In this document: positions 22,216 to 35,545 of the stretch, piece after piece | Position numbering within the stretch: position 1 is the first letter of the stretch | Layout: every line of letters starts with the position of its first letter | The notes under the pieces: model-generated | Database searches by the model: none | The model's input: the letters and a program-made list of their open reading frames with translations, nothing else | What the model was told of the DNA's origin: nothing | NCBI GenBank assembly: GCA_964515115.1 | Contig: CAZESB010000005.1 | Coordinates: 1-46,662 of the forward strand | Direction of reading: 5' to 3' | Source of the DNA: an uncultured Pseudomonadales bacterium | GTDB lineage: Bacteria > Patescibacteriota > Microgenomatia > UBA1400 > PJMF01 | Length of the DNA stretch: 46,662 bases | Made by a program: the position numbers and the translations under genes

Positions 22216-23175
22216 ATGCGCACAAAATTTACTATTGCCGGTTTGGGTGGTACTTTCGATCATTTTCATCAAGGCCACGAAGAATTTCTCAAATTTGCCG
22301 CTACAGCCGCTGATTACTTAATCATCGGTATTACCACGGAAAAAATGCTGTCTGGTAAACCCTTGCCAGAGTTAATCCAGCCCTGGCATGAACGAGTCAA
22401 GCAGGTGAAGCGTTTTTGTCAAAATAACCATATCGCCTGCGAAATAATCGAACTTAATGATCCCTACGGCCCGACAATTGAGCCGGACACGCGCATTGAG
22501 GCCATCATCGTCACTGAGGAAACTGCGAGTGGAGCAGAGAAGATCAATGCAATCCGCCGAGGGCAGAACCTCAGCCAGCTGCCAGTTCATGTTTTCCAGA
22601 TGATCAAAGATGAAAGGGGCGAGGACCTTCATGCTGAAAATATCCGCGCTGGCCTGGTGAGTAGAAGTGGGCGCTATTTTCCCGGCGCGATTGAAAATGG
22701 CCTCACTTTAGCTGAAAAACAAAGAAAGTTTTTCTCCGAACTGCAGGGAAAATTGGTAAAGGCTCCCACTGTCAGGGCCGACAGAATTTGCCTAGTGGGC
22801 GACTATACCCTGGAAGCTTTTTTGTCGTTTCAATGGCCCTATGACCTGGCGATTTTCGACAACCAAACTCAGCGCGGCACTTACAACTCTCCCTTGATTG
22901 CCAAGTTGGAGATTGAGCACCAGGTGAAAAATCCCGCCAGCACTATTGCTCCGGCGCTAGTGACCTTGCTGCAGGCTTGGCAGCCAGGTACTTTTCGCCA
23001 TGTTTTTGTAGATGGAGAAGAGGATTTGGCCACAGTTGCTCTGGTTTTGACTTTGCCACTTGAGTCAGTGATTTATTACGGCCAACCAGACAAGGGTTTG
23101 GTTGAATTGAAAGTGACGGAAAAGATTAAAAACCGTTTTTATGAAGCCTTAGTTCCGAATCTTTCCCAAACATAA
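22216..23175 (+). CDS. fusion of archaeal-type phosphopantetheine adenylyltransferase and DUF359 GTP-dependent dephospho-CoA kinase
   Basis: N-terminal half: cytidylyltransferase fold GGTFDHFHQGHEEFL (HxGH). C-terminal half: LVGDYT...IFDNQTQRG...VDGEEDLATVALVLTLPLESVIYYGQPDKGLVELKV, the hallmark VGD / GEEDL / YGQP pattern of DUF359. Confidence 0.7.
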   Translation: MRTKFTIAGLGGTFDHFHQGHEEFLKFAATAADYLIIGITTEKMLSGKPLPELIQPWHERVKQVKRFCQNNHIACEIIELNDPYGPTIEPDTRIEAIIVTEETASGAEKINAIRRGQNLSQLPVHVFQMIKDERGEDLHAENIRAGLVSRSGRYFPGAIENGLTLAEKQRKFFSELQGKLVKAPTVRADRICLVGDYTLEAFLSFQWPYDLAIFDNQTQRGTYNSPLIAKLEIEHQVKNPASTIAPALVTLLQAWQPGTFRHVFVDGEEDLATVALVLTLPLESVIYYGQPDKGLVELKVTEKIKNRFYEALVPNLSQT

Positions 23176-24440: not shown

Positions 24441-25883
24441 ATGACGCCTCAGCAGACGCTACAAAAATTCTTTGGTTATCCAGATTTTCGCGAAGGCCAG
24501 TTGGAGGTGATTGAGCCACAACTACACGGCCAAGACACGCTAGCAATTCTGCCTACCGGAGGCGGTAAGTCCATTTGTTTTCAGGTTCCGGCTTTGATGT
24601 TATCTGGGACTACTATTGTCATTTCGCCCTTGATTTCCCTGATGCAAGACCAAGTAGATAATTTACTGAAAAATGGTATTGCCGCTACTTTTTTGAACAG
24701 TGCTCTGGAGGAAAAAGAGTACCAGCTTCGTCTGAAAAATATGGCTGAAAACCAGTACCGGCTTGTGTATGTTGCGCCAGAAAGATTACTCAATCCAGAT
24801 TTTATCAAAGTAGCGATAAAAATAGCCGTGCCTTTGATTGTGATTGATGAAGCGCATTGCATCAGTGAGTGGGGTAATGATTTCAGGCCAGCCTACAAAA
24901 AGATTCCTGAGTTTGTAGCCCAGCTGCCAAAAAGACCAACTATTTCTGCCTTTACCGCCACTGCCACACCGGCAGTGAAAACGGACATTAGCCAGTCGCT
25001 CAAGCTGCAAAGTCCTCACCTGTTTCAGCAAAGTTTCCGGCGCACCAATCTCAGCTTGCAAGTGCTTCATACCCCTAGCCGACAACTGCAAGAATTTCTG
25101 CTCATGCGGCTGATTAAAAAGCACCAACACGACACTGGCATTATTTATACGGCTACCAGGTCGGCTGCTGAGTACGTGAGCGAGATGATCAATTACTTTG
25201 CCGGAGCTAAAATTACTGCCGCTTATCATGGCGGTTTAGACAAAGAAATCCGCTCAAGCATCCAAGACCAGTTTATGAGTGATCAAAAAAGAGTTATTGC
25301 TGCCACCAATGCCTTTGGTATGGGAGTGGACAAAGCTAACGTGCGTTATGTGATTCACTATCATCCCAGTACCAGTATTGAAAATTATTATCAAGAAGTA
25401 GGCCGGGCCGGGCGCGATGGTAAAGAATCGAACTGCTATTTGCTTTACAATCCTTACTCGCTGGTTATTCATCATGGACTGATCAACAAACAAGAGCCTG
25501 AAACCCAAAAAAGAAATCAGGCAAAGCTGCAAGCAATGATTGATTATGCCAAGCACCAATCATGCAGAATGAAATTCGTGCTTAATTATTTCGGCGAAAC
25601 TGCCGATCAGTGCCACAACTGCGATTATTGCCACTGCCAAATTGAAGAATCTTCGCATCCTTTACTACAGTTGGCTGAGAAAGAGGAGAAGGAACGGATC
25701 AAGCGCTTGCTTGATCTGCGGGAAAATCTTTCCAGAAAACATCAGTGTCATCTCACCGAAGTCATGAGTGATTCGGTGCTCTGCAATATTGCTTTACATC
25801 AGCCTAAAAATAATCAAGAGCTGCTGAGAATACCTGGCGTAGGTTTAGGCTGGGTGGAAAGATGGGGCAGCGCCATATGTTGA
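24441..25883 (+). CDS. recQ: RecQ-family ATP-dependent DNA helicase
   Basis: FGYPDFREGQLEVI, PTGGGKS, DEAHCISEWGNDFRPAY, ATNAFGMGVDK, QEVGRAGRDG, a Zn-binding Cys cluster, and an HRDC-like end. I prefer the ATG at 24441. Confidence 0.9.
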   Translation: MTPQQTLQKFFGYPDFREGQLEVIEPQLHGQDTLAILPTGGGKSICFQVPALMLSGTTIVISPLISLMQDQVDNLLKNGIAATFLNSALEEKEYQLRLKNMAENQYRLVYVAPERLLNPDFIKVAIKIAVPLIVIDEAHCISEWGNDFRPAYKKIPEFVAQLPKRPTISAFTATATPAVKTDISQSLKLQSPHLFQQSFRRTNLSLQVLHTPSRQLQEFLLMRLIKKHQHDTGIIYTATRSAAEYVSEMINYFAGAKITAAYHGGLDKEIRSSIQDQFMSDQKRVIAATNAFGMGVDKANVRYVIHYHPSTSIENYYQEVGRAGRDGKESNCYLLYNPYSLVIHHGLINKQEPETQKRNQAKLQAMIDYAKHQSCRMKFVLNYFGETADQCHNCDYCHCQIEESSHPLLQLAEKEEKERIKRLLDLRENLSRKHQCHLTEVMSDSVLCNIALHQPKNNQELLRIPGVGLGWVERWGSAIC

Positions 25884-27715
25884 TAAAGTAGGCCATCTGC
25901 AAAACCTTTTTTGCGGTAGTATTCTTTGGTGCCGATAGCCGAAATGACGGCAATTTTTTCGTAACCGGCAGCGGCGCTGAGTTCACGAGCCTTGGTAATT
26001 AATTGAGTGCCGAGCCCTAAATGCTGAGCCTTGCCCTTGGCTTTTTTGCCGATTCCTACCACTCGCCCATAGACATGAATTTCTCTGATTATGGCCGCGT
26101 TTTGCAGCTCATCAATAAAGTTTTCAACTTTGGGTAGGCTGAGGCGCAAAAAGGCCACAATTTTGGTACCGCCGGTTTTGGCGTCCGGCACTACATATTG
26201 CAAAAATTTTTCACTGCTGACGTTAGTTTCATACTCAACGATTTCCAGTTTTAATTTTTTGTCATCAATCTTGTTGTTGCGAATTTCCCGAGCGCGGATA
26301 TCGATAGATTTTTTCCCGGCCTTAGCTAAATGAATTTCAGCGATTTGCCGGAAGTTGGTTTTTTTATTGCCTTCAACTATATCTGTTGAGGGAATATCGC
26401 GAATTATTCTGGTAAGACGACAGTATTCCGGCGTTTGCAAAATACAAGCCGACAAAACTTGCAGCAACTCTTCATGGGTGTAGGGTCGCCACAAACCTTT
26501 TTGAAAGTATTGCATTAACTCAGCGCTATTGATAAGCGAGCAGGGATAAATTTTTAGCTCGTCCGGATGAAAGTCCTCACCAGTGAATAACTGCTGAAAA
26601 TCCGCGACATCGGCTTCAACTGATGAGCCATAAAGATTAGCCATCCAGTGAGCATGAATTTTAAATCCAGCTTGACGCAGCAACTTGAAAGCGCGGCGGC
26701 TGGCTGCCACGTCGTGACCACGGTGGTTCTTTGCCAACACGCTGTCCTGCAAACTTTGCAAGCCAATTTGCGCCTTGGTGCAGCCCAGCCGCCTCATCCT
26801 CACTACCTCTGCTTCAGAAATATTGTCGGGCCGAGTTTCCACCACCAACCCCACACTCCGGCACTCGGCCGTTTCATTCTTCTGCTGCTCTCGCTCAAGT
26901 TCTTCCCAAGTAGACTGTTGATAATCGCCAAAACCACCCAAGGCCTCAGGCGCCACATATAACTCGGACACAGCTTGATTGTAAGATTTTGCCAAAGACG
27001 CACCCTCCACCATCTTGCCAGCCAAACGACGCTGATTTTCCTCCGGCAAATTACTGGGCGCGTGCAGCTGCATTGCCTCCAACCGGCGCCGCATCTCTTC
27101 ATAATGTTTTAGCACTGCAGCTCTGCCATCAATCCGACCAAAGTCATTCAGTGCCCGAAAGCACTCCTTAATAAACCAAAGCTGATATTGCTCAGGATAG
27201 TAAGACCAAGTACCGCCAAGCACAATCAGCTCAACTTTGTCCACCGAGTGGCCAATATTACTCAGTGCCTCCAGCCTAGTATAAGTCTGCAAATAAGGGT
27301 CAAACCAGTTTCGTTCAGCCCGCTGCGCTCCTGGTTCATCAGCCAGGTAGCTTTTGGGCATCCGGACGTCATTGGGACAAAAAATGCATTTGCCCGGGCA
27401 AGGAAAAGGCTTAGTCAGTACCGTCACTGGCGCCACACCGGACACCGTCCGCACCGGCTTCATCCTAATGTGCCTAATCACCGCTTCAGAATACGGCTGC
27501 AAGCCATTGGTACCGGCCAAACTGCGATAGGCTTGCACTAATTCATCTTTGGAAAAAACATCACCATTTTCTTTAGTATGCTTTTTGACTAGTTTAGCTA
27601 GCTTGTCGGCTGAACCAGCCTGCCAATGCTCGATAGTTTGCAAAATCGGGACCAGCTGCTCAAGATAATTGGTATAATCAAAAGGCCTGTTCATGAGTGA
27701 CTCATTATACTGCAT
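25814..27715 (-). CDS. elp3: bacterial Elp3 homolog (radical SAM plus GNAT acetyltransferase; tRNA U34 cm5 modification enzyme family)
   Basis: Radical-SAM cluster region PCPGKCIFCPND. Elp3-type central domain. C-terminal GNAT REIHVYG...GKAQHLGLGTQLI...YYRKKGF. Confidence 0.8.
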   Translation of the reverse strand: MQYNESLMNRPFDYTNYLEQLVPILQTIEHWQAGSADKLAKLVKKHTKENGDVFSKDELVQAYRSLAGTNGLQPYSEAVIRHIRMKPVRTVSGVAPVTVLTKPFPCPGKCIFCPNDVRMPKSYLADEPGAQRAERNWFDPYLQTYTRLEALSNIGHSVDKVELIVLGGTWSYYPEQYQLWFIKECFRALNDFGRIDGRAAVLKHYEEMRRRLEAMQLHAPSNLPEENQRRLAGKMVEGASLAKSYNQAVSELYVAPEALGGFGDYQQSTWEELEREQQKNETAECRSVGLVVETRPDNISEAEVVRMRRLGCTKAQIGLQSLQDSVLAKNHRGHDVAASRRAFKLLRQAGFKIHAHWMANLYGSSVEADVADFQQLFTGEDFHPDELKIYPCSLINSAELMQYFQKGLWRPYTHEELLQVLSACILQTPEYCRLTRIIRDIPSTDIVEGNKKTNFRQIAEIHLAKAGKKSIDIRAREIRNNKIDDKKLKLEIVEYETNVSSEKFLQYVVPDAKTGGTKIVAFLRLSLPKVENFIDELQNAAIIREIHVYGRVVGIGKKAKGKAQHLGLGTQLITKARELSAAAGYEKIAVISAIGTKEYYRKKGFADGLLYQHMALPHLSTQPKPTPGILSSS

Positions 27716-27736: not shown

Positions 27737-28489
27737 ATGAAATTAACCACCATCAAGAAGCTCAACGCTCTCAACCAAAAGTTTTACCAAAATGTGGCCG
27801 AGCCTTTTAACCGCAGTCGCCAGTTTTATTGGTTGGGTTGGGAAAAACTGCTACCCACTCTCAAAAAACACTTTTACAACAACCATCAGCTTAAGGTCTT
27901 GGACCTTGGCTGCGGTAATGGCCGGTTTGGTAGTTTTCTCACCGAAAATTTCGAACAAAAAATCAATTATCACGGCCTTGATTCCAATCTCGAACTGCTT
28001 AAACTAGCAAAAAAACGATCGGTAAATTTTTCATTTTCCCACTCCGACTTCATTGATGACCTCCTTCACCATCGCTTTTTACAAAATTTTCCCCAAAACT
28101 CACAAGACTTAATCGTCATGTTTGGCGTTTGGCATCATCTACCCTCAAGCAAACTCCGCCAACAACTACTCCAAAAAATAACGGCGTTTCTCAACCAAAA
28201 CGGCCTACTCATTTTTACAGCCTGGCAGTTCTACGAATTAGAGCGCTTCAAAAACAAAATCATCAATCCCGAACTGGCCGACATCAACCCAACTGAACTG
28301 GAAACCAACGACTACCTCATCAGTTGGCAGCGGGGCGTAGAGTCCCACCGTTACTGCCACTATTCACCAGACTCGGAAATTCAGGAGCACCTCAAAAAAT
28401 CCCCCAGCATAAAGCAAATTGCCTCTTTCAGCGCGGATGGCGAGCAAGATCGCAGTAACAATTACTATATTCTAGGTAAAAATCAATAA
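27737..28489 (+). CDS. class I SAM-dependent methyltransferase, Trm9/ALKBH8-MT-like
   Basis: SAM motif I VLDLGCGNGRF. Later NDYLISWQRG...HRYCHYSPDSEIQEHL resembles the Trm9-family ...W....RYYH.F...EL block (pattern recalled, not searched). Divergent from elp3 with a 21-nt gap. Confidence 0.6.
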   Translation: MKLTTIKKLNALNQKFYQNVAEPFNRSRQFYWLGWEKLLPTLKKHFYNNHQLKVLDLGCGNGRFGSFLTENFEQKINYHGLDSNLELLKLAKKRSVNFSFSHSDFIDDLLHHRFLQNFPQNSQDLIVMFGVWHHLPSSKLRQQLLQKITAFLNQNGLLIFTAWQFYELERFKNKIINPELADINPTELETNDYLISWQRGVESHRYCHYSPDSEIQEHLKKSPSIKQIASFSADGEQDRSNNYYILGKNQ

Positions 28490-28509: not shown

Positions 28510-30099
28510 ATGAAAACTGCACTGGGGCTGCTTTATATCGTGCTAAGTATCATTGGCATCGCTGATGCGGGTTACATTACCTATACTGAATACCTGAAGC
28601 CGGGAGGCGAGGTAGTTTGTGGCCCTGGGTTTGACTGTAGTTCGGTTCTCGACAGTCCTTACGCCTACATCGGCCCATTTCCCTTGGCATTTTTGGGGCT
28701 GATTTTTTACTCGACTGTTTTTATCCTGGGAGTTTTGAACTTTCTAGATATTGATGTCCGCCCGTTTTTCAACAGACTAGCAGACAAACTCAAGCTCAAC
28801 CAACTCAACCCCCTCAGGTTTATTACCACCCATGAACTACTAGTCTTTTTAACAATTTTCGGAGCCTTATTTTCTCTTTATTTACTCATTATCATGGGCT
28901 ACGTGCTTAGAGCCTGGTGCCAATTTTGTCTTCTCTCTGCGGTCACCTCAATGTCACTTTTCCTGATTAGCATTTTATACACTATCTTAGCACAAGATCG
29001 TTCACTTTTTGTACTCAAACATCTTAATTTCCAAATTTTTAGTTTCTTGTACAAAAATGTGCTCAAGCCCGTCCTGTTTTTGTTCGACGCTGAAAAAGTT
29101 CACAACAGTTTTGCTGATTTTGGCAAAATTCTCGGCAGCTTTAGCTTGACGCAAAAACTTACTCACGCCAGTTTCGCTTTCAAGCACCCAGTTACTGCCA
29201 AAAAAATTGATGACATTATCTTCCCCAATCCTGTGGGTTTGTCGGCTGGTTTTGACTACAACGCCTTACTTACTGGTATCTTGCCCGATGTCGGTTTCGG
29301 TTGGCACACTATTGGCACTATTACTTATGAACCCTACGAAGGCAATCCCGTCCCTCGGCTCAAACGGCTGCCAGAATCAAAAGGGTTGTTGGTCAATAAA
29401 GGTCTCAAAAATATTGGCACTAGAGGTATTATTCAGAAACTTGAGGGCCGAAAATTTCGCATTCCTACCGGCATTTCCATTGCTAGCACTAATAAATTAT
29501 TCAAAAACACCAAAGAACAAATCATCGACATTTTGATGTCATTCCAACTCTTTGAGGAATCGAGGGTAGATCTCAGTTATTACGAATTAAATATCAGCTG
29601 TCCCAACACTTTTGGCGGCGAGCCTTTCACCACTCCCCAGCGCTTAAAATTGTTACTCACGGCCTTAGATAAGCTGGCTATTACCAAACCAATATACGTA
29701 AAAATGCCCATAGATCAATCAGCAGAGGAGACGCTTGAGTTGCTCAAAGTAATTGACAAACATCATATCCAAGGTGTCATTTTAGGCAATCTCACCAAAA
29801 ACAAAAATAATCCCGCCGTTTCTACAACTGAGAGAAAAATTTGGCAAGAAAGTAGGGGAAACGTTAGTGGTAAGGCCACCTGGGAGCTTTCCAATAACCT
29901 CATCAAATTAACCAAGAAAAAATATAAAAAGAGATTTACTATCATTGGTACCGGGGGAATTTTTACAGCCGAAGACGCGGATGAAAAACTTAAACTAGGT
30001 GCAGATCTGGTGCAACTAATTACCGGCATGGTTTTTGAAGGCCCGCAGCTGCTGGGAAAAATCAGCCACCTTCAGGCAAGAAAAAAATTAACGAATTAA
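28510..30099 (+). CDS. pyrD: fusion of VKOR-family domain (N-terminal) and class 2 dihydroorotate dehydrogenase (quinone)
   Basis: Residues 1 to about 165: four TM helices, loop cysteines VCGPGFDCSSVLDSPYAYIGPFPLAFLG and the TM4 redox motif WCQFC (VKOR signature). The rest: NPVGLSAGFDYN, YELNISCPNT, GTGGIFTAEDA, LVQLITGMVFEGP (DHODH type 2). Confidence 0.8.
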   Translation: MKTALGLLYIVLSIIGIADAGYITYTEYLKPGGEVVCGPGFDCSSVLDSPYAYIGPFPLAFLGLIFYSTVFILGVLNFLDIDVRPFFNRLADKLKLNQLNPLRFITTHELLVFLTIFGALFSLYLLIIMGYVLRAWCQFCLLSAVTSMSLFLISILYTILAQDRSLFVLKHLNFQIFSFLYKNVLKPVLFLFDAEKVHNSFADFGKILGSFSLTQKLTHASFAFKHPVTAKKIDDIIFPNPVGLSAGFDYNALLTGILPDVGFGWHTIGTITYEPYEGNPVPRLKRLPESKGLLVNKGLKNIGTRGIIQKLEGRKFRIPTGISIASTNKLFKNTKEQIIDILMSFQLFEESRVDLSYYELNISCPNTFGGEPFTTPQRLKLLLTALDKLAITKPIYVKMPIDQSAEETLELLKVIDKHHIQGVILGNLTKNKNNPAVSTTERKIWQESRGNVSGKATWELSNNLIKLTKKKYKKRFTIIGTGGIFTAEDADEKLKLGADLVQLITGMVFEGPQLLGKISHLQARKKLTN

Positions 30100-32492: not shown

Positions 32493-33125
32493 ATGCGAAG
32501 ATCAGAAAAGTTTTCTTTAATTTTAATTCTGGCTACTTTTTGCCTGGGAATAGCGCTTTATCCGCGGCTACCGGACCAGATGGCAGCGCACTGGAATTTT
32601 GCTGGCAACGCCGATGGCTTTATGCCCAAACTTCCCGGTACTTTCTTCTTGCCTTTGACTATGTTAGCCGTTTTTGGCCTTTATCAATGGATGATCACTG
32701 CTGATCCAATGAAAAATAATATCGTCAAATCAATTAAGCAATTTCATCATTTCTTAATCTCAATTTTCATTTTCTTCTTTTATTTGTTCTGCTTAATGAT
32801 GGCTTGGAATTTGGGTTATCGATTCAACATGACCCAATGGATCGTTCCGGCAGTGAGTATGATTTTTATTGCTATTAGCCATATTATTAAAGATATCCAA
32901 CCAAACTGGACCTTGGGCATCAAAACTCCCTGGACTTTGTCTGATAAAAAAGTTTGGCGAGAAACTCATCAGTGGGGGAGTAAGATGTTTAGGGCAGCCA
33001 GCATGGTGATTTTGGCTGGCGTTTTTCTGCCTCAATACCTGCCGTATTTGTTTATAGCAGCCATTCTGCTGGCTGCCCTGGTACCCACCGTTTATTCCTA
33101 CTGGAAATACAAACAACTTAACTGA
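32493..33125 (+). CDS. DUF1648/SdpI-family membrane protein
   Basis: LPDQMAAHWNFAGNADGF (DUF1648) followed by the SdpI-like TM bundle (NWTLGIKTPWTL...W). TATAAT lies 6 nt upstream of the ATG. Confidence 0.7.
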   Translation: MRRSEKFSLILILATFCLGIALYPRLPDQMAAHWNFAGNADGFMPKLPGTFFLPLTMLAVFGLYQWMITADPMKNNIVKSIKQFHHFLISIFIFFFYLFCLMMAWNLGYRFNMTQWIVPAVSMIFIAISHIIKDIQPNWTLGIKTPWTLSDKKVWRETHQWGSKMFRAASMVILAGVFLPQYLPYLFIAAILLAALVPTVYSYWKYKQLN

Positions 33126-35289
33126 TTGCCAGCTGCTGCAAAACCTGATAAAGCTGGGAAGGATTGGCTAACCGGTACTTGGCTTTAGTCGAACCCGAAC
33201 CGATCTTAACTGTTAAGGCCGATTCCTGATCACGCAACACCGCAAACATTTCTTCATCCGTCACATCATCTCCGGCCGCGAAAATAAAATCACCTGGCTT
33301 ATTTTCAACCAACAGCCTGACAGCCGCGCCTTTGTTAATTCCCGCGTTTTTCACTTCTAAAACCTTGCTGCCTTCAAGAACTTGAATATTCATATTAGCA
33401 ATTAGATGCAACAGTTCATGCTTTAGTTCATTGGCTGCTGGTTTAGCCTCTTCCGGCTTCGAGCGCCGATAGTGCCAAGCCAGAGCATAAGCTTTTTCTT
33501 CAATGAATGATTTTTTTACTCTCTCCGAGTATTTTTGCAAAATCGGTCTGATTAGCGGTTTCCATTCAGACGTTAAGTTGGGAGCGTTTTGCCATTTACC
33601 ATTAATCCGAGTGATGGCCCCATGCTCAGCCACCAGCATAACCTTGAGTCCGCCAAACCAAGTCTCCATGGTCTCTTGATCTCGACCGGAAATAATAACA
33701 ATCCGGTTTTTTCGATTTTTAGCTAAGTTTGATAGCAGCTTTAGTATCCTCTCATTCGGCTCGGCTAACTCTGGCTTAGGAGCAAAGTCCGACAAAGTCC
33801 CATCGTAATCTAAAAAAATTAACCGCTTTGAAGATTTTTTCAACTTTTCATTTAAGATACTTTTACCCCGATTCAAAAGACTGGTTTGTTTAACATATTT
33901 GGTTTTAACTTTTTTCATTTCCTGAAAAATTTCTTCAAACCACCGACTGCTGGTGTTTTTCTTCAACCGAGATTGCATTTCAGTATTTCGCCAAATTTGC
34001 TCACTTTCAGGCATAGCCAAGGCAGTAGCGATAGCCTGACCCATCTCGGCAATACTATTGGGATTAACCAACAATGCTTGCCTTAACTCTTTAGCCGCCC
34101 CAGTCAATTCACTCAAAATTAAAACTCCCTTACCAGCTTGCAAGCTAGCCACGTATTCTTTAGCTACTAAATTCATCCCATCGCGCAGAGGCGTCACCAA
34201 GCAAATGTCTGCCAGCTGATACAAGGCCACCAATTCCTCCTGGCTAAAAGAGCGGAGTTGATAGGTAATCGGCAGCCAACCAATAGTCCCGTAACGGCCG
34301 TTGATCTCTGAAACCAAACGACTAATTTGACTCCGCATTTCTTTGTACTCAGGAATTTTGGTCCTGGATGGCACTGCAATCAAAATCAGCGAAACCTGAT
34401 GATGGTAATCAGGATAATGATCCAAAAAATAGCTAAAAGCCTGTAGGCGATTATATATTCCCTTGGTGTAATCCAGCCGATCTATAGAGATAATAATTTT
34501 CTTACCGGCAAAAATCTGCTTGAGATCAAAGAGAGCTTCTTGGACAACACCGGCAAAACTCTCATAATTAATACCCAAAGGAAATGATTGCGTTTTCACC
34601 AAACGGTTATTGTACAAAACGGTGCCAAAACTGTGGGTAAATCCAAGGATTCGGAGTACACTATCAAGAAAATAATGCCCATAATCATCAGTGTGCATGC
34701 CGATCAAATCCGCCCCCAACAGTCCCTCCAAAATCTGCACTCTCCAGGTTGAGGGCAGTATTCTGAATATTTCATAGGCAGGAAAAGGGATGTGGAGAAA
34801 AAAAATAATCTCCGCATTGGGAATTTTTTCTCTCACCAACTGAGGAACTAACATCAACTGGTAATCCTGAATGAAAATCAAGTCGCCTGGTTGGTAGTTT
34901 TTAATTATCTGATCCGCAAACCGCTGGTTAGCAACTCGATAGGCTTGCCAATAATCGTCGTCAAAGCGGCACTTATTGGGGAAATAATGAAAAAGAGGCC
35001 AAATTATCTCGTTGCAAAAACCTTCATAAAACTCTTTTTGCTCTTGTTGAGTGAAAAAAACGGGTACAGCTTGGTATTTTTTCCAGACCAGATTCTTTGC
35101 CGCCACTTTTTTGCTCTCACTAATCACTCCGCCAGGCCAACCAATCCAGAGATAATCCATCTTTTTGGTAAGCAGAAATTTTTCCAAATTCTGAGCTAAA
35201 CCACCAATACTGATTTTGGCCGCCAGTTTTTTATCCTGCTGAGAGAGAGTTACCGGCAATCGGTTGGAAACTACAATTAATTTTGACAT
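33118..35289 (-). CDS. otsA: bifunctional trehalose-6-phosphate synthase / trehalose-6-phosphate phosphatase
   Basis: GT20 domain (LIVVSNRLPV, IWPLFHY, FLHIPFP, LRDGMNLVAKEY) followed by a HAD phosphatase (LIFLDYDGTL, GDDVTDEEMF). ATG at 35289. The longer ORF-track N-terminus runs through tRNA-Gln and is rejected. Confidence 0.9.
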   Translation of the reverse strand: MSKLIVVSNRLPVTLSQQDKKLAAKISIGGLAQNLEKFLLTKKMDYLWIGWPGGVISESKKVAAKNLVWKKYQAVPVFFTQQEQKEFYEGFCNEIIWPLFHYFPNKCRFDDDYWQAYRVANQRFADQIIKNYQPGDLIFIQDYQLMLVPQLVREKIPNAEIIFFLHIPFPAYEIFRILPSTWRVQILEGLLGADLIGMHTDDYGHYFLDSVLRILGFTHSFGTVLYNNRLVKTQSFPLGINYESFAGVVQEALFDLKQIFAGKKIIISIDRLDYTKGIYNRLQAFSYFLDHYPDYHHQVSLILIAVPSRTKIPEYKEMRSQISRLVSEINGRYGTIGWLPITYQLRSFSQEELVALYQLADICLVTPLRDGMNLVAKEYVASLQAGKGVLILSELTGAAKELRQALLVNPNSIAEMGQAIATALAMPESEQIWRNTEMQSRLKKNTSSRWFEEIFQEMKKVKTKYVKQTSLLNRGKSILNEKLKKSSKRLIFLDYDGTLSDFAPKPELAEPNERILKLLSNLAKNRKNRIVIISGRDQETMETWFGGLKVMLVAEHGAITRINGKWQNAPNLTSEWKPLIRPILQKYSERVKKSFIEEKAYALAWHYRRSKPEEAKPAANELKHELLHLIANMNIQVLEGSKVLEVKNAGINKGAAVRLLVENKPGDFIFAAGDDVTDEEMFAVLRDQESALTVKIGSGSTKAKYRLANPSQLYQVLQQLAIS

Positions 35290-35370
35290 TTTAATACTGC
35301 CAAGAGTACAGAAAAATAGTAATAGTTCAATGAAAAATCGACCTAAGAAAGGTAAATAAGAAAAGTAAGG

Positions 35371-35441
35371 ATGCCCCGCTTGGATTCGAACCAAGATTAA
35401 CGGCTTCAAAGGCCGCTGTCCTGCCGTTAGACGACGGGGCA
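35371..35441 (-). tRNA. tRNA-Gln (anticodon TTG)
   Basis: Reverse complement is tgccccg-tc-gtct-aacggca-ggac-a-gcggc-cTTTGaa-gccgt-taat-cttgg-ttcgaat-ccaag-cggggca-t. Confidence 0.85.
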
Positions 35442-35545
35442 AAACAATAACTCTGTACAAGGCGGTATTTTAGCAGATTCGCCCATAAGAGTGAAGTTGA
35501 CATACAACATATAAAAATTGGCTTCTATCTGTATATAATAGTCAT

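Follow-up and report, generated by a model that had tools for sequence, protein, structure and literature searches.

Oxidative protein folding in bacteria is thought to rely on the respiratory quinone pool. Members of the Candidate Phyla Radiation (CPR, or Patescibacteria) carry vitamin K epoxide reductase homologues (VKOR) or DsbB together with many secreted and pilus proteins, yet show no quinone synthesis or respiratory chain, which puts at issue where the electrons released by disulfide formation are sent. The question is raised by a single gene on contig CAZESB010000005.1, recorded as an uncultured Pseudomonadales bacterium and placed by GTDB in the Patescibacteriota; the whole 46,662-nucleotide stretch analysed is referred to as the window. 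At 28510..30099 (+), this gene encodes a VKOR module fused to a protein of the dihydroorotate dehydrogenase (DHODH) family. An earlier note, made from the sequence alone, proposed that such a fusion could channel electrons from dihydroorotate through a shared quinone site to, or from, extracytoplasmic thiol chemistry. The reading favoured here, held tentatively and with a probability of about 0.45, is that the fusion is a two-module membrane redox enzyme for extracytoplasmic disulfide formation, with its modules connected in series via quinone, and that it does not serve pyrimidine synthesis. A conserved flavoenzyme partner of this kind (fused, coupled or adjacent, with VKOR and DsbB swappable) is a concrete, cloneable candidate for the missing electron step and, if the reading is true, a core pyrimidine enzyme has taken on a new role.

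The gene is one open reading frame of 529 codons plus the stop codon, with zero internal stops, and all of its features described below lie on the forward strand. Its product matched two Pfam profiles: PF07884 (VKOR) at residues 8-154 (88.7 bits against a cut-off of 27.5, profile positions 2-133 of 134; score range 88.7-90.1 bits) and PF01180 (DHO_dh) at residues 231-519 (161.3 bits against a cut-off of 27; range 161-163). A full-length AlphaFold2 model, built on an alignment of 120 homologues (51-88% identity), was confident throughout, including the VKOR/DHODH junction (pLDDT 94.9, pTM 0.92), and placed four transmembrane helices first, then a class-2 DHODH N-terminal helical domain (residues 167-222) and finally the barrel; as modelled, the full-length protein is rigid. 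Separate, overlapping VKOR and DHODH-like genes exist in relatives (loci L082, L083 and L085), and two such genes might have been merged by faulty assembly or annotation. Against this stand the continuous frame, an identical protein recorded on four contigs, both domains in all of the best 120 homologue clusters, dozens of independent fused orthologues and the confident model over the junction, which leave an artefact (by frameshift, stop or otherwise) a negligible chance; the fusion described in the earlier note is real. A search of the representative library with residues 1-230 yielded about 10 proteins of at least 480 residues in the best 150 cluster representatives, and so contributed little that the locus survey had not already given.

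The VKOR module (28531..28974) comprises transmembrane helices at residues 2-29, 59-78, 107-133 and 138-161 plus an extracytoplasmic loop, and is supported by PF07884 and Foldseek. The loop cysteine pair is C37...C43 (CGPGFDC, 28618..28638), and the CxxC redox centre (C137-Q-F-C140, 28918..28929) lies at the outer end of the fourth transmembrane helix. Among the 120 homologues, C43, C137 and C140 were invariant and C37 and S49 were conserved in at least 90%, while all four cysteines were kept in 43 of the 45 fused GTDB species representatives. A separate AlphaFold2 model of residues 1-175 (pLDDT 84) formed a four-helix transmembrane bundle and, when searched against the PDB with Foldseek, its top 14 matches were all VKOR structures (4nv6, 4nv2, 3kp9, 6wv3; probability 1.00, TMq up to 0.65). 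The claim of a complete four-helix module with the motifs VCGPGFDC and WCQFC and the conserved serine (S49) is thus borne out by profile, model helices and structural matches, and the cysteines are not lost among homologous fusions, as they might have been in a mere membrane anchor. The module has what marks the VKOR family: the profile, four redox cysteines, the loop serine, the fold and, in the same genome, a DsbA/MdbA-like partner. The fusion is the sole VKOR and the sole DHO_dh gene of its host genome (G000: 881 kb, 45 contigs, about 96% complete).

The flavin module keeps the scaffold of a class-2, quinone-dependent DHODH. Its N-terminal helical (quinone-tunnel) domain (residues ~167-222, 29008..29175) has helices at 167-189, 194-210 and 212-222 in the AlphaFold2 model, holds H198 (E. 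coli His19) and aligns to its counterpart in 1F76, 8OFW and 6B8S. The VKOR module therefore does not replace the membrane anchor of the enzyme, as had been supposed; it is added ahead of a class-2 domain that is still there. The flavin mononucleotide (FMN) TIM-barrel of the DHO_dh family follows (residues 231-519, 29200..30066; PF01180 and Foldseek), and the class-2 enzymes 6b8s, 1f76 and 8ofw were matched by Foldseek at TMt 0.86-0.90. In the alignment to E. coli PyrD (1F76) and the 120 homologues, the quinone side is kept (His19 = H198 and Arg102 = R286, both invariant), as is the FMN side (Lys217 = K398; Asn172/Asn177/Asn246 = N361/N366/N427; all invariant in the family).

The substrate pocket is rebuilt, and the statement that all DHODH motifs are present did not hold. 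In the active-site loop NISCPN (29590..29607), the invariant Cys364 stands in place of the catalytic serine (E. coli Ser175), and in the GFDY motif (29248..29259) Tyr250, conserved in at least 90% of homologues, stands in place of the class-2 lysine (Lys66). Asn111 is replaced by Val295, the asparagine having moved by one to 296, and Thr247 by Leu428; these four changes are conserved in the clade, and Tyr318 is Ile504 in the same alignment. Lys66, Asn111 and Thr247 are taken here, from work on 1F76 and 1D3G, to contact orotate or FMN. None of the NCBIfam quinone-DHODH equivalog cut-offs was reached (best scores 266.7 against 448 and 250.1 against 267). Compared with class-2 PyrD (E. coli 1F76, M. 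tuberculosis 8OFW, H. pylori 6B8S, human 1D3G), the protein thus has the common fold, the His/Arg-bearing N-terminal quinone domain, the FMN lysine and Asn172/177/246, and differs at Ser175, Lys66, Asn111, Thr247 and Tyr318, in its sub-equivalog scores, in its VKOR/DsbB link and in mostly lacking a pyr pathway around it. Nor is it a class-1A enzyme: it has the Cys base of that class (N(I/L)SCPN loop, as in the fumarate-dependent Lactococcus lactis PyrDa) together with a class-2 N-terminal domain, whereas class-1A DHODHs are soluble, without such a quinone domain, and their chains were matched weakly (E ~1e-8). In class-1A enzymes the catalytic cysteine also serves the reduction of the second substrate at the same site. 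Judged by residue conservation, both modules look functional, since little or no variation is seen in the VKOR cysteines, His198/Arg286, Lys398 or the NISCPN loop.

The altered pocket defines a paralogue. In a sample of 401 genomes of the phylum, a close homologue was found in about 65, and about 70 sequences were typed by motif. Type I (GFDK / INRxGxNN / TNT) is canonical-like and sits directly beside pyrF in L031-L033; type II has GFDK / V[YN]YGLKN / GNL and type III has GFDY / VNKG[FL]K / GNL, Tyr250 being the diagnostic residue of the type III clade. The fusion protein belongs to this Patescibacteria-specific clade: in a maximum-likelihood tree all eight sampled fusions fell inside type III (support 100/99), mixed with six unfused members that start at the class-2 N-terminal domain, without a transmembrane segment. 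Because fused and unfused members interleave, at least three fusion or fission events are required. The named hosts of homologues are Patescibacteria/CPR (Pacebacteria/Paceibacterota, Woesebacteria, Microgenomates, Cerribacteria). Many contigs with this gene of CPR type bear the title 'uncultured Pseudomonadales', 'Gammaproteobacteria', 'Vitreimonas sp.', 'Methylococcaceae' or 'Limisphaerales' (for example L039, L041, L043 and L083); these odd titles are probably due to mislabelled bins, which makes record titles unfit for taxonomy here.

Linkage to VKOR follows the paralogue type. The phyletic survey that the earlier note had called for covered 80 loci from GTDB species representatives (about 60 type III-like, 20 type II), of which 45 were fused. 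The type III-like loci consisted of these 45, nine in which a stand-alone VKOR adjoins an unfused gene, and one fused gene cut by a contig end, so that about 55 of the 60 were fused or adjacent to VKOR; VKOR linkage was seen at none of the 20 type II loci. The VKOR and DHODH-like genes share ATGA stop/start overlaps in L082 and L085. Across the 401-genome sample, the 19 type III genomes included 15 with VKOR and 18 with VKOR or DsbB, and the 39 type II genomes 22 and 36, respectively; the remaining 343 genomes had VKOR in 95 and VKOR or DsbB in 145 (42%), background tallies that for DsbB, as for pyrF below, include one unpublished genome (G154, in the rest group) whose removal shifts counts by one and on which no particular conclusion depends. 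DsbB was present in three of the four type III genomes that lack VKOR; in G181 its gene precedes the type III gene by 53 bp and has the same orientation, and in G179 it lies 153 bp downstream of a type II gene. Recurrent fusion or fission, coupled or adjacent pairs and DsbB as an alternative partner support a functional coupling of the two modules, as far as gene arrangement can indicate it.

Pyrimidine genes, by comparison, are mostly missing. Absences are given here as 'not found', in genomes that are mostly at least 90% complete. In G000, pyrF and pyrB were not found and the search for pyrE gave weak phosphoribosyltransferase-motif matches only. By PF00215 matches above the cut-off, pyrF was present in 3 of the 19 type III and 19 of the 39 type II genomes, and in 141 of all 401 sampled; there was no clear pyrB, pyrE or pyrF in 11 of the 14 type III genomes tested for all three, G000 among them. 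The pyr-complete type III genomes G380 and G107 have one further DHO_dh gene each, of a class-1-like kind; that of G380 sits inside a pyrF-pyrE-...-pyrB cluster; both second genes are divergent and score below the cut-off, and their assignment as the PyrD of these genomes is suggestive only. The suggestion that the fused protein is the sole PyrD of G380 and G107 is weakened by these genes, though only in part, since they are divergent.

These data bear on the possibility that the protein is an ordinary quinone-dependent DHODH for pyrimidine synthesis or salvage, with VKOR as a mere anchor or as a co-localised, parallel quinone reducer. In its favour, the protein keeps an intact class-2 scaffold, with the FMN residues and the quinone tunnel; pyrF is present in three type III genomes, one genome (G241) has pyrE and pyrF with the type III enzyme as its only DHO_dh, and the Cys base also occurs in the canonical-type patescibacterial PyrD beside pyrF in L031-L033, for which reason the cysteine alone does not exclude DHODH activity. 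Set against these are the 16 of 19 type III genomes without pyrF and the 11 of 14 without any clear pyrB, pyrE or pyrF, the conserved changes at the orotate-pocket positions Lys66, Asn111 and Thr247, and the conservation of all four VKOR cysteines, which speaks against a mere anchor; moreover, the unfused members, which have no transmembrane segment, need no anchor, and parallel quinone reducers would be left without a re-oxidant in these genomes. An ordinary DHODH is accordingly judged decidedly unlikely. In the electron channelling first proposed, the coupling of the modules stands, and dihydroorotate as the physiological substrate is doubtful because G000 and most type III genomes have no pyrB, pyrE or pyrF. 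For CPR metabolic reconstructions, the label 'dihydroorotate dehydrogenase (quinone)' that such genes bear in public records should not be taken as a sign of pyrimidine synthesis.

The genome that encodes the fusion also appears to offer little else to a quinone. The supposition that it lacks a respiratory chain agrees with searches of G000, in which neither such a chain nor quinone synthesis was found: MenA/UbiA, cytochrome bd, heme-copper oxidase, NuoH (complex I), an SdhA/FrdA-type flavoprotein and the DAO/GlpD family were not found, and neither was NDH-2, the sole Pyr_redox_2 protein being the thioredoxin reductase TrxB. MenA and COX1 were not found in any of the 19 type III genomes. The sole UbiA-family gene of G000 was considered as MenA/UbiA and rejected: it encodes a decaprenyl-phosphate phosphoribosyltransferase (NF008978, above cut-off; L003 1408-2364 (+), contig C14) and lies in a cell-envelope cluster between MraY/WecA-like and PMT-like glycosyltransferase genes, a setting suggestive of a polyprenyl-sugar pathway of arabinan type for the envelope of this cell. 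The DsbA-like partners that had been suggested as a check were found as three PF13462 proteins encoded on contigs C10 and C4 of G000, each with an N-terminal transmembrane anchor and a CPAC, CPFC or CIYC motif, and a separate reductive thiol route is formed by TrxB and a CcdA-like protein. The latter (DsbD_2, PF13386, 111 bits; L160 1303-2376 (+), contig C2 of G000, outside the window) carries a cupredoxin-like domain (PF13473, 48 bits) fused to its C-terminus; it is unusual for a thiol-reductant transporter to be joined to a copper-protein fold.

Taken together with the topology, these findings suggest a route for the electrons. From the charge distribution and the known topology of VKOR, the N-terminus and the flavin module would be cytoplasmic and both cysteine pairs outside. 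The VKOR module would oxidise the membrane-anchored DsbA/MdbA-like proteins and hand their electrons on to a quinone in the membrane, which the cell presumably scavenges; the flavin module, at the cytoplasmic face with its class-2 quinone tunnel and rebuilt pocket, would exchange electrons with the same quinone, and FMN would then deliver them to a cytoplasmic acceptor, probably not orotate. Two modules in series could so give oxidative folding a self-contained outlet for its electrons where the cell has no respiratory chain. The quinone relay, the electron direction, the acceptor and the topology are what we infer, on the following grounds. If these are the sole quinone-reactive sites, two net quinone reducers could not turn over and the modules have to be connected in series. 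In the bacterial VKOR and DsbB enzymes that are characterised, electrons pass from thiol to quinone. The VKOR module is expected to run oxidatively because G000 has three DsbA-like proteins and a separate TrxB/CcdA-like reductive route, and given the known VKOR/DsbB direction and that separate route, flow from DsbA-like protein to VKOR, quinone, FMN and acceptor is the most economical. Orotate is disfavoured as acceptor because the pocket is rebuilt and the thermodynamics are unfavourable. As to the shared quinone site of the earlier proposal, a single site is unlikely on topology, which puts the VKOR site at the outer and the DHODH tunnel at the inner face of the membrane; a quinone shuttling between two sites would be more plausible.

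Several observations weigh against this series arrangement. Textbook potentials are about -258 mV for orotate/dihydroorotate and about -74 mV for menaquinone, so that flow from quinol through FMN to orotate would be thermodynamically uphill, and another acceptor or unusual cofactor potentials are therefore needed. The fused protein could still act as PyrD in G380 and G107, because their second DHO_dh genes are divergent and below the cut-off, and G241 is a counter-example. The association with VKOR or DsbB has a nominal Fisher p of 3e-14 (types II and III against the rest), a value that is overstated, as it is not corrected for phylogeny, and the co-occurrence could come in part from a common need for scavenged quinone. 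The dependence is also one-way: a type II or III protein was present in only 54 of the 199 sampled genomes with VKOR or DsbB, which means that most Patescibacteria VKORs work without such a partner.

That one-way dependence is what would be expected if the flavin module needs VKOR or DsbB as an outlet, and it is one of the points that favour the reverse flow, in which the flavin module takes electrons from a cytoplasmic donor (a dihydroorotate-like compound or reduced flavodoxin) and reduces quinone, and VKOR reduces extracytoplasmic disulfides. The protein would then belong to a reductive or isomerase pathway, or to a fermenter's export of reducing equivalents. By textbook potentials, electron transfer from dihydroorotate to a DsbA-type disulfide is downhill overall, and the presence of lactate dehydrogenase (LDH) in 14 of the 80 loci, of a Crp-family regulator in 11 and of flavodoxin in four suggests a role in cytoplasmic redox balance. 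Reverse flow is nevertheless unlikely, given that known VKOR and DsbB run from thiol to quinone, that disulfide reduction by menaquinol or ubiquinol is uphill, that G000 already has the TrxB and CcdA-like reductive route, that there is no dihydroorotate source without pyrB, and that reduced DsbA-like proteins would oppose oxidative folding.

The modules might also be associated indirectly: both enzymes would rely on host-derived quinone, and the fusion would keep scarce quinone near or make antioxidant quinol, with no electron exchange between the modules. This would account for the 36 of the 39 type II genomes that also have VKOR or DsbB even though the genes are not physically linked, and it agrees with the failure to find quinone synthesis in any type III genome. 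It leaves unexplained the repeated fusion, the ATGA-overlapping pairs, the DsbB adjacency and the clusters that are shuffled yet maintained, and it supposes an orphan dehydrogenase whose substrate is not supplied and whose quinol is not re-oxidised, so that its chance appears slim.

A wider formulation, possible though doubtful, leaves the direction free: a DHODH-derived FMN enzyme was recruited in CPR as the dedicated cytoplasmic partner of VKOR or DsbB, forming a minimal transmembrane conduit that replaces the respiratory chain as outlet or inlet and acts on a substrate other than orotate. In some lineages such a conduit may be tied to fermentative redox balance via the genes for LDH, flavodoxin and the Crp-family regulator that cluster with it. 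The LDH, an NAD-dependent L-lactate dehydrogenase that scored 340 bits with TIGR01771 (cut-off 303.6), is encoded next to the module, in shuffled gene orders, at L084, L086, L088, L090, L091, L093, L071, L074, L075, L077, L079, L080, L097 and L098, a clustering that suggests a tie to fermentative redox balance; in L090 the VKOR, LDH and DHODH-like genes overlap in an operon-like manner. The Crp/Fnr-family regulator (cNMP-binding plus HTH_Crp_2) lies directly upstream of the fused gene in L074, L075, L077 and L079 and between the DHODH-like and VKOR genes in L084, L088 and L093, and was also found at L086, L091, L098 and L116. FNR-type oxygen sensing by this regulator was rejected, as the conserved cysteine cluster is not present, and what appeared to be a 0.75-kb insertion in the genes of L084, L088 and L093 was resolved into separate DHODH-like and VKOR genes around the Crp-family gene. 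Flavodoxin (PF00258, 74 bits) belongs to the LDH-Crp-VKOR-DHODH-like cluster of L084 (7282-7734, +), L086, L091 and L093, and is a possible cytoplasmic electron partner.

Among known systems, bacterial VKORs (the Synechococcus VKOR-thioredoxin 3KP9 and 4NV2/5/6, and those of M. tuberculosis and Actinomyces oris) share with the fusion the Pfam family, the four-helix fold and the loop cysteine pair with CxxC, and DsbA/MdbA-like partners are likewise encoded in the host genome; in A. oris, VKOR re-oxidises MdbA. The differences lie in the partner, which in the Synechococcus type is a periplasmic thioredoxin-like domain after a fifth transmembrane helix and here a cytoplasmic FMN enzyme after the fourth, and in the host, which here shows no quinone synthesis or respiratory chain. 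The proposed flow has the logic of the E. coli DsbA-DsbB pathway, in which DsbA electrons pass via membrane quinone to a quinol-oxidising enzyme, and DsbB indeed stands in for VKOR as type III partner in some genomes; in E. coli the downstream enzymes are terminal oxidases or anaerobic reductases, whereas the candidate here is a dedicated DHODH-derived flavoprotein in a cell with no respiratory chain. The sulfhydryl oxidases Ero1 and Erv/ALR are functional analogues only, in that a flavin serves as electron outlet for disulfides; they have no sequence or fold kinship with the fusion, have flavin and CxxC next to each other on one side of the membrane, and use O2 as acceptor. CPR VKOR genes adjoining MdbA-like genes have been reported (Meheust et al., 2019; PMC6744442), with no mention of DHODH there. 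In full-text literature searches, no paper was found on a VKOR-DHODH fusion or on an orphan DHODH in CPR, in keeping with the earlier remark that no characterised example was known. The paralogue typing, the cross-tabulation of pyr genes with VKOR/DsbB on one genome sample, DsbB as an alternative partner and the LDH/Crp/flavodoxin cluster appear to be new here.

Other membrane proteins adjoin the module in a few relatives. In three loci (L075 5503-6174 (+), L077 5448-6083 (+) and L070) the fused gene overlaps at its 3' end with a gene for a protein with five transmembrane helices; the L075 protein gave a weak, sub-threshold ferric-reductase/MsrQ-like match (PF01794, 24.7 bits; cut-off 28). On a Gracilibacteria-titled contig (L103 3084-4007 (+)), a DoxX protein with eight transmembrane helices (PF07681, 28 bits against 23.6) overlaps a type II gene from upstream; DoxX is another membrane family associated with quinones and thiols.

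Just upstream of the fusion in the window lies a divergent pair, a radical S-adenosylmethionine (SAM) Elp3-like gene (25814-27715, -) and a class-I SAM methyltransferase gene (27737-28489, +), which a sequence note had regarded as a possible tRNA-modification pair. The order Elp3-methyltransferase-fusion-VIT1 was kept at 37 of the 45 fused loci, in close relatives only and in zero distant fusions; the methyltransferase was therefore rejected as a functional partner, its linkage being read as lineage synteny, and it was rejected as a quinone methylase (UbiE/MenG) since its matches were generic class-I ones with UbiE far below cut-off. Elsewhere in the window, a 780-residue fusion of trehalose-6-phosphate synthase (Glyco_transf_20) and trehalose phosphatase is encoded at 33118-35460 (-). 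A 319-residue protein with a cytidylyltransferase-like domain and DUF359, which we take to be the archaeal-type dephospho-CoA kinase family, is encoded at 22216-23175 (+) and may be a bifunctional, archaeal-style enzyme of late CoA synthesis in a bacterium.

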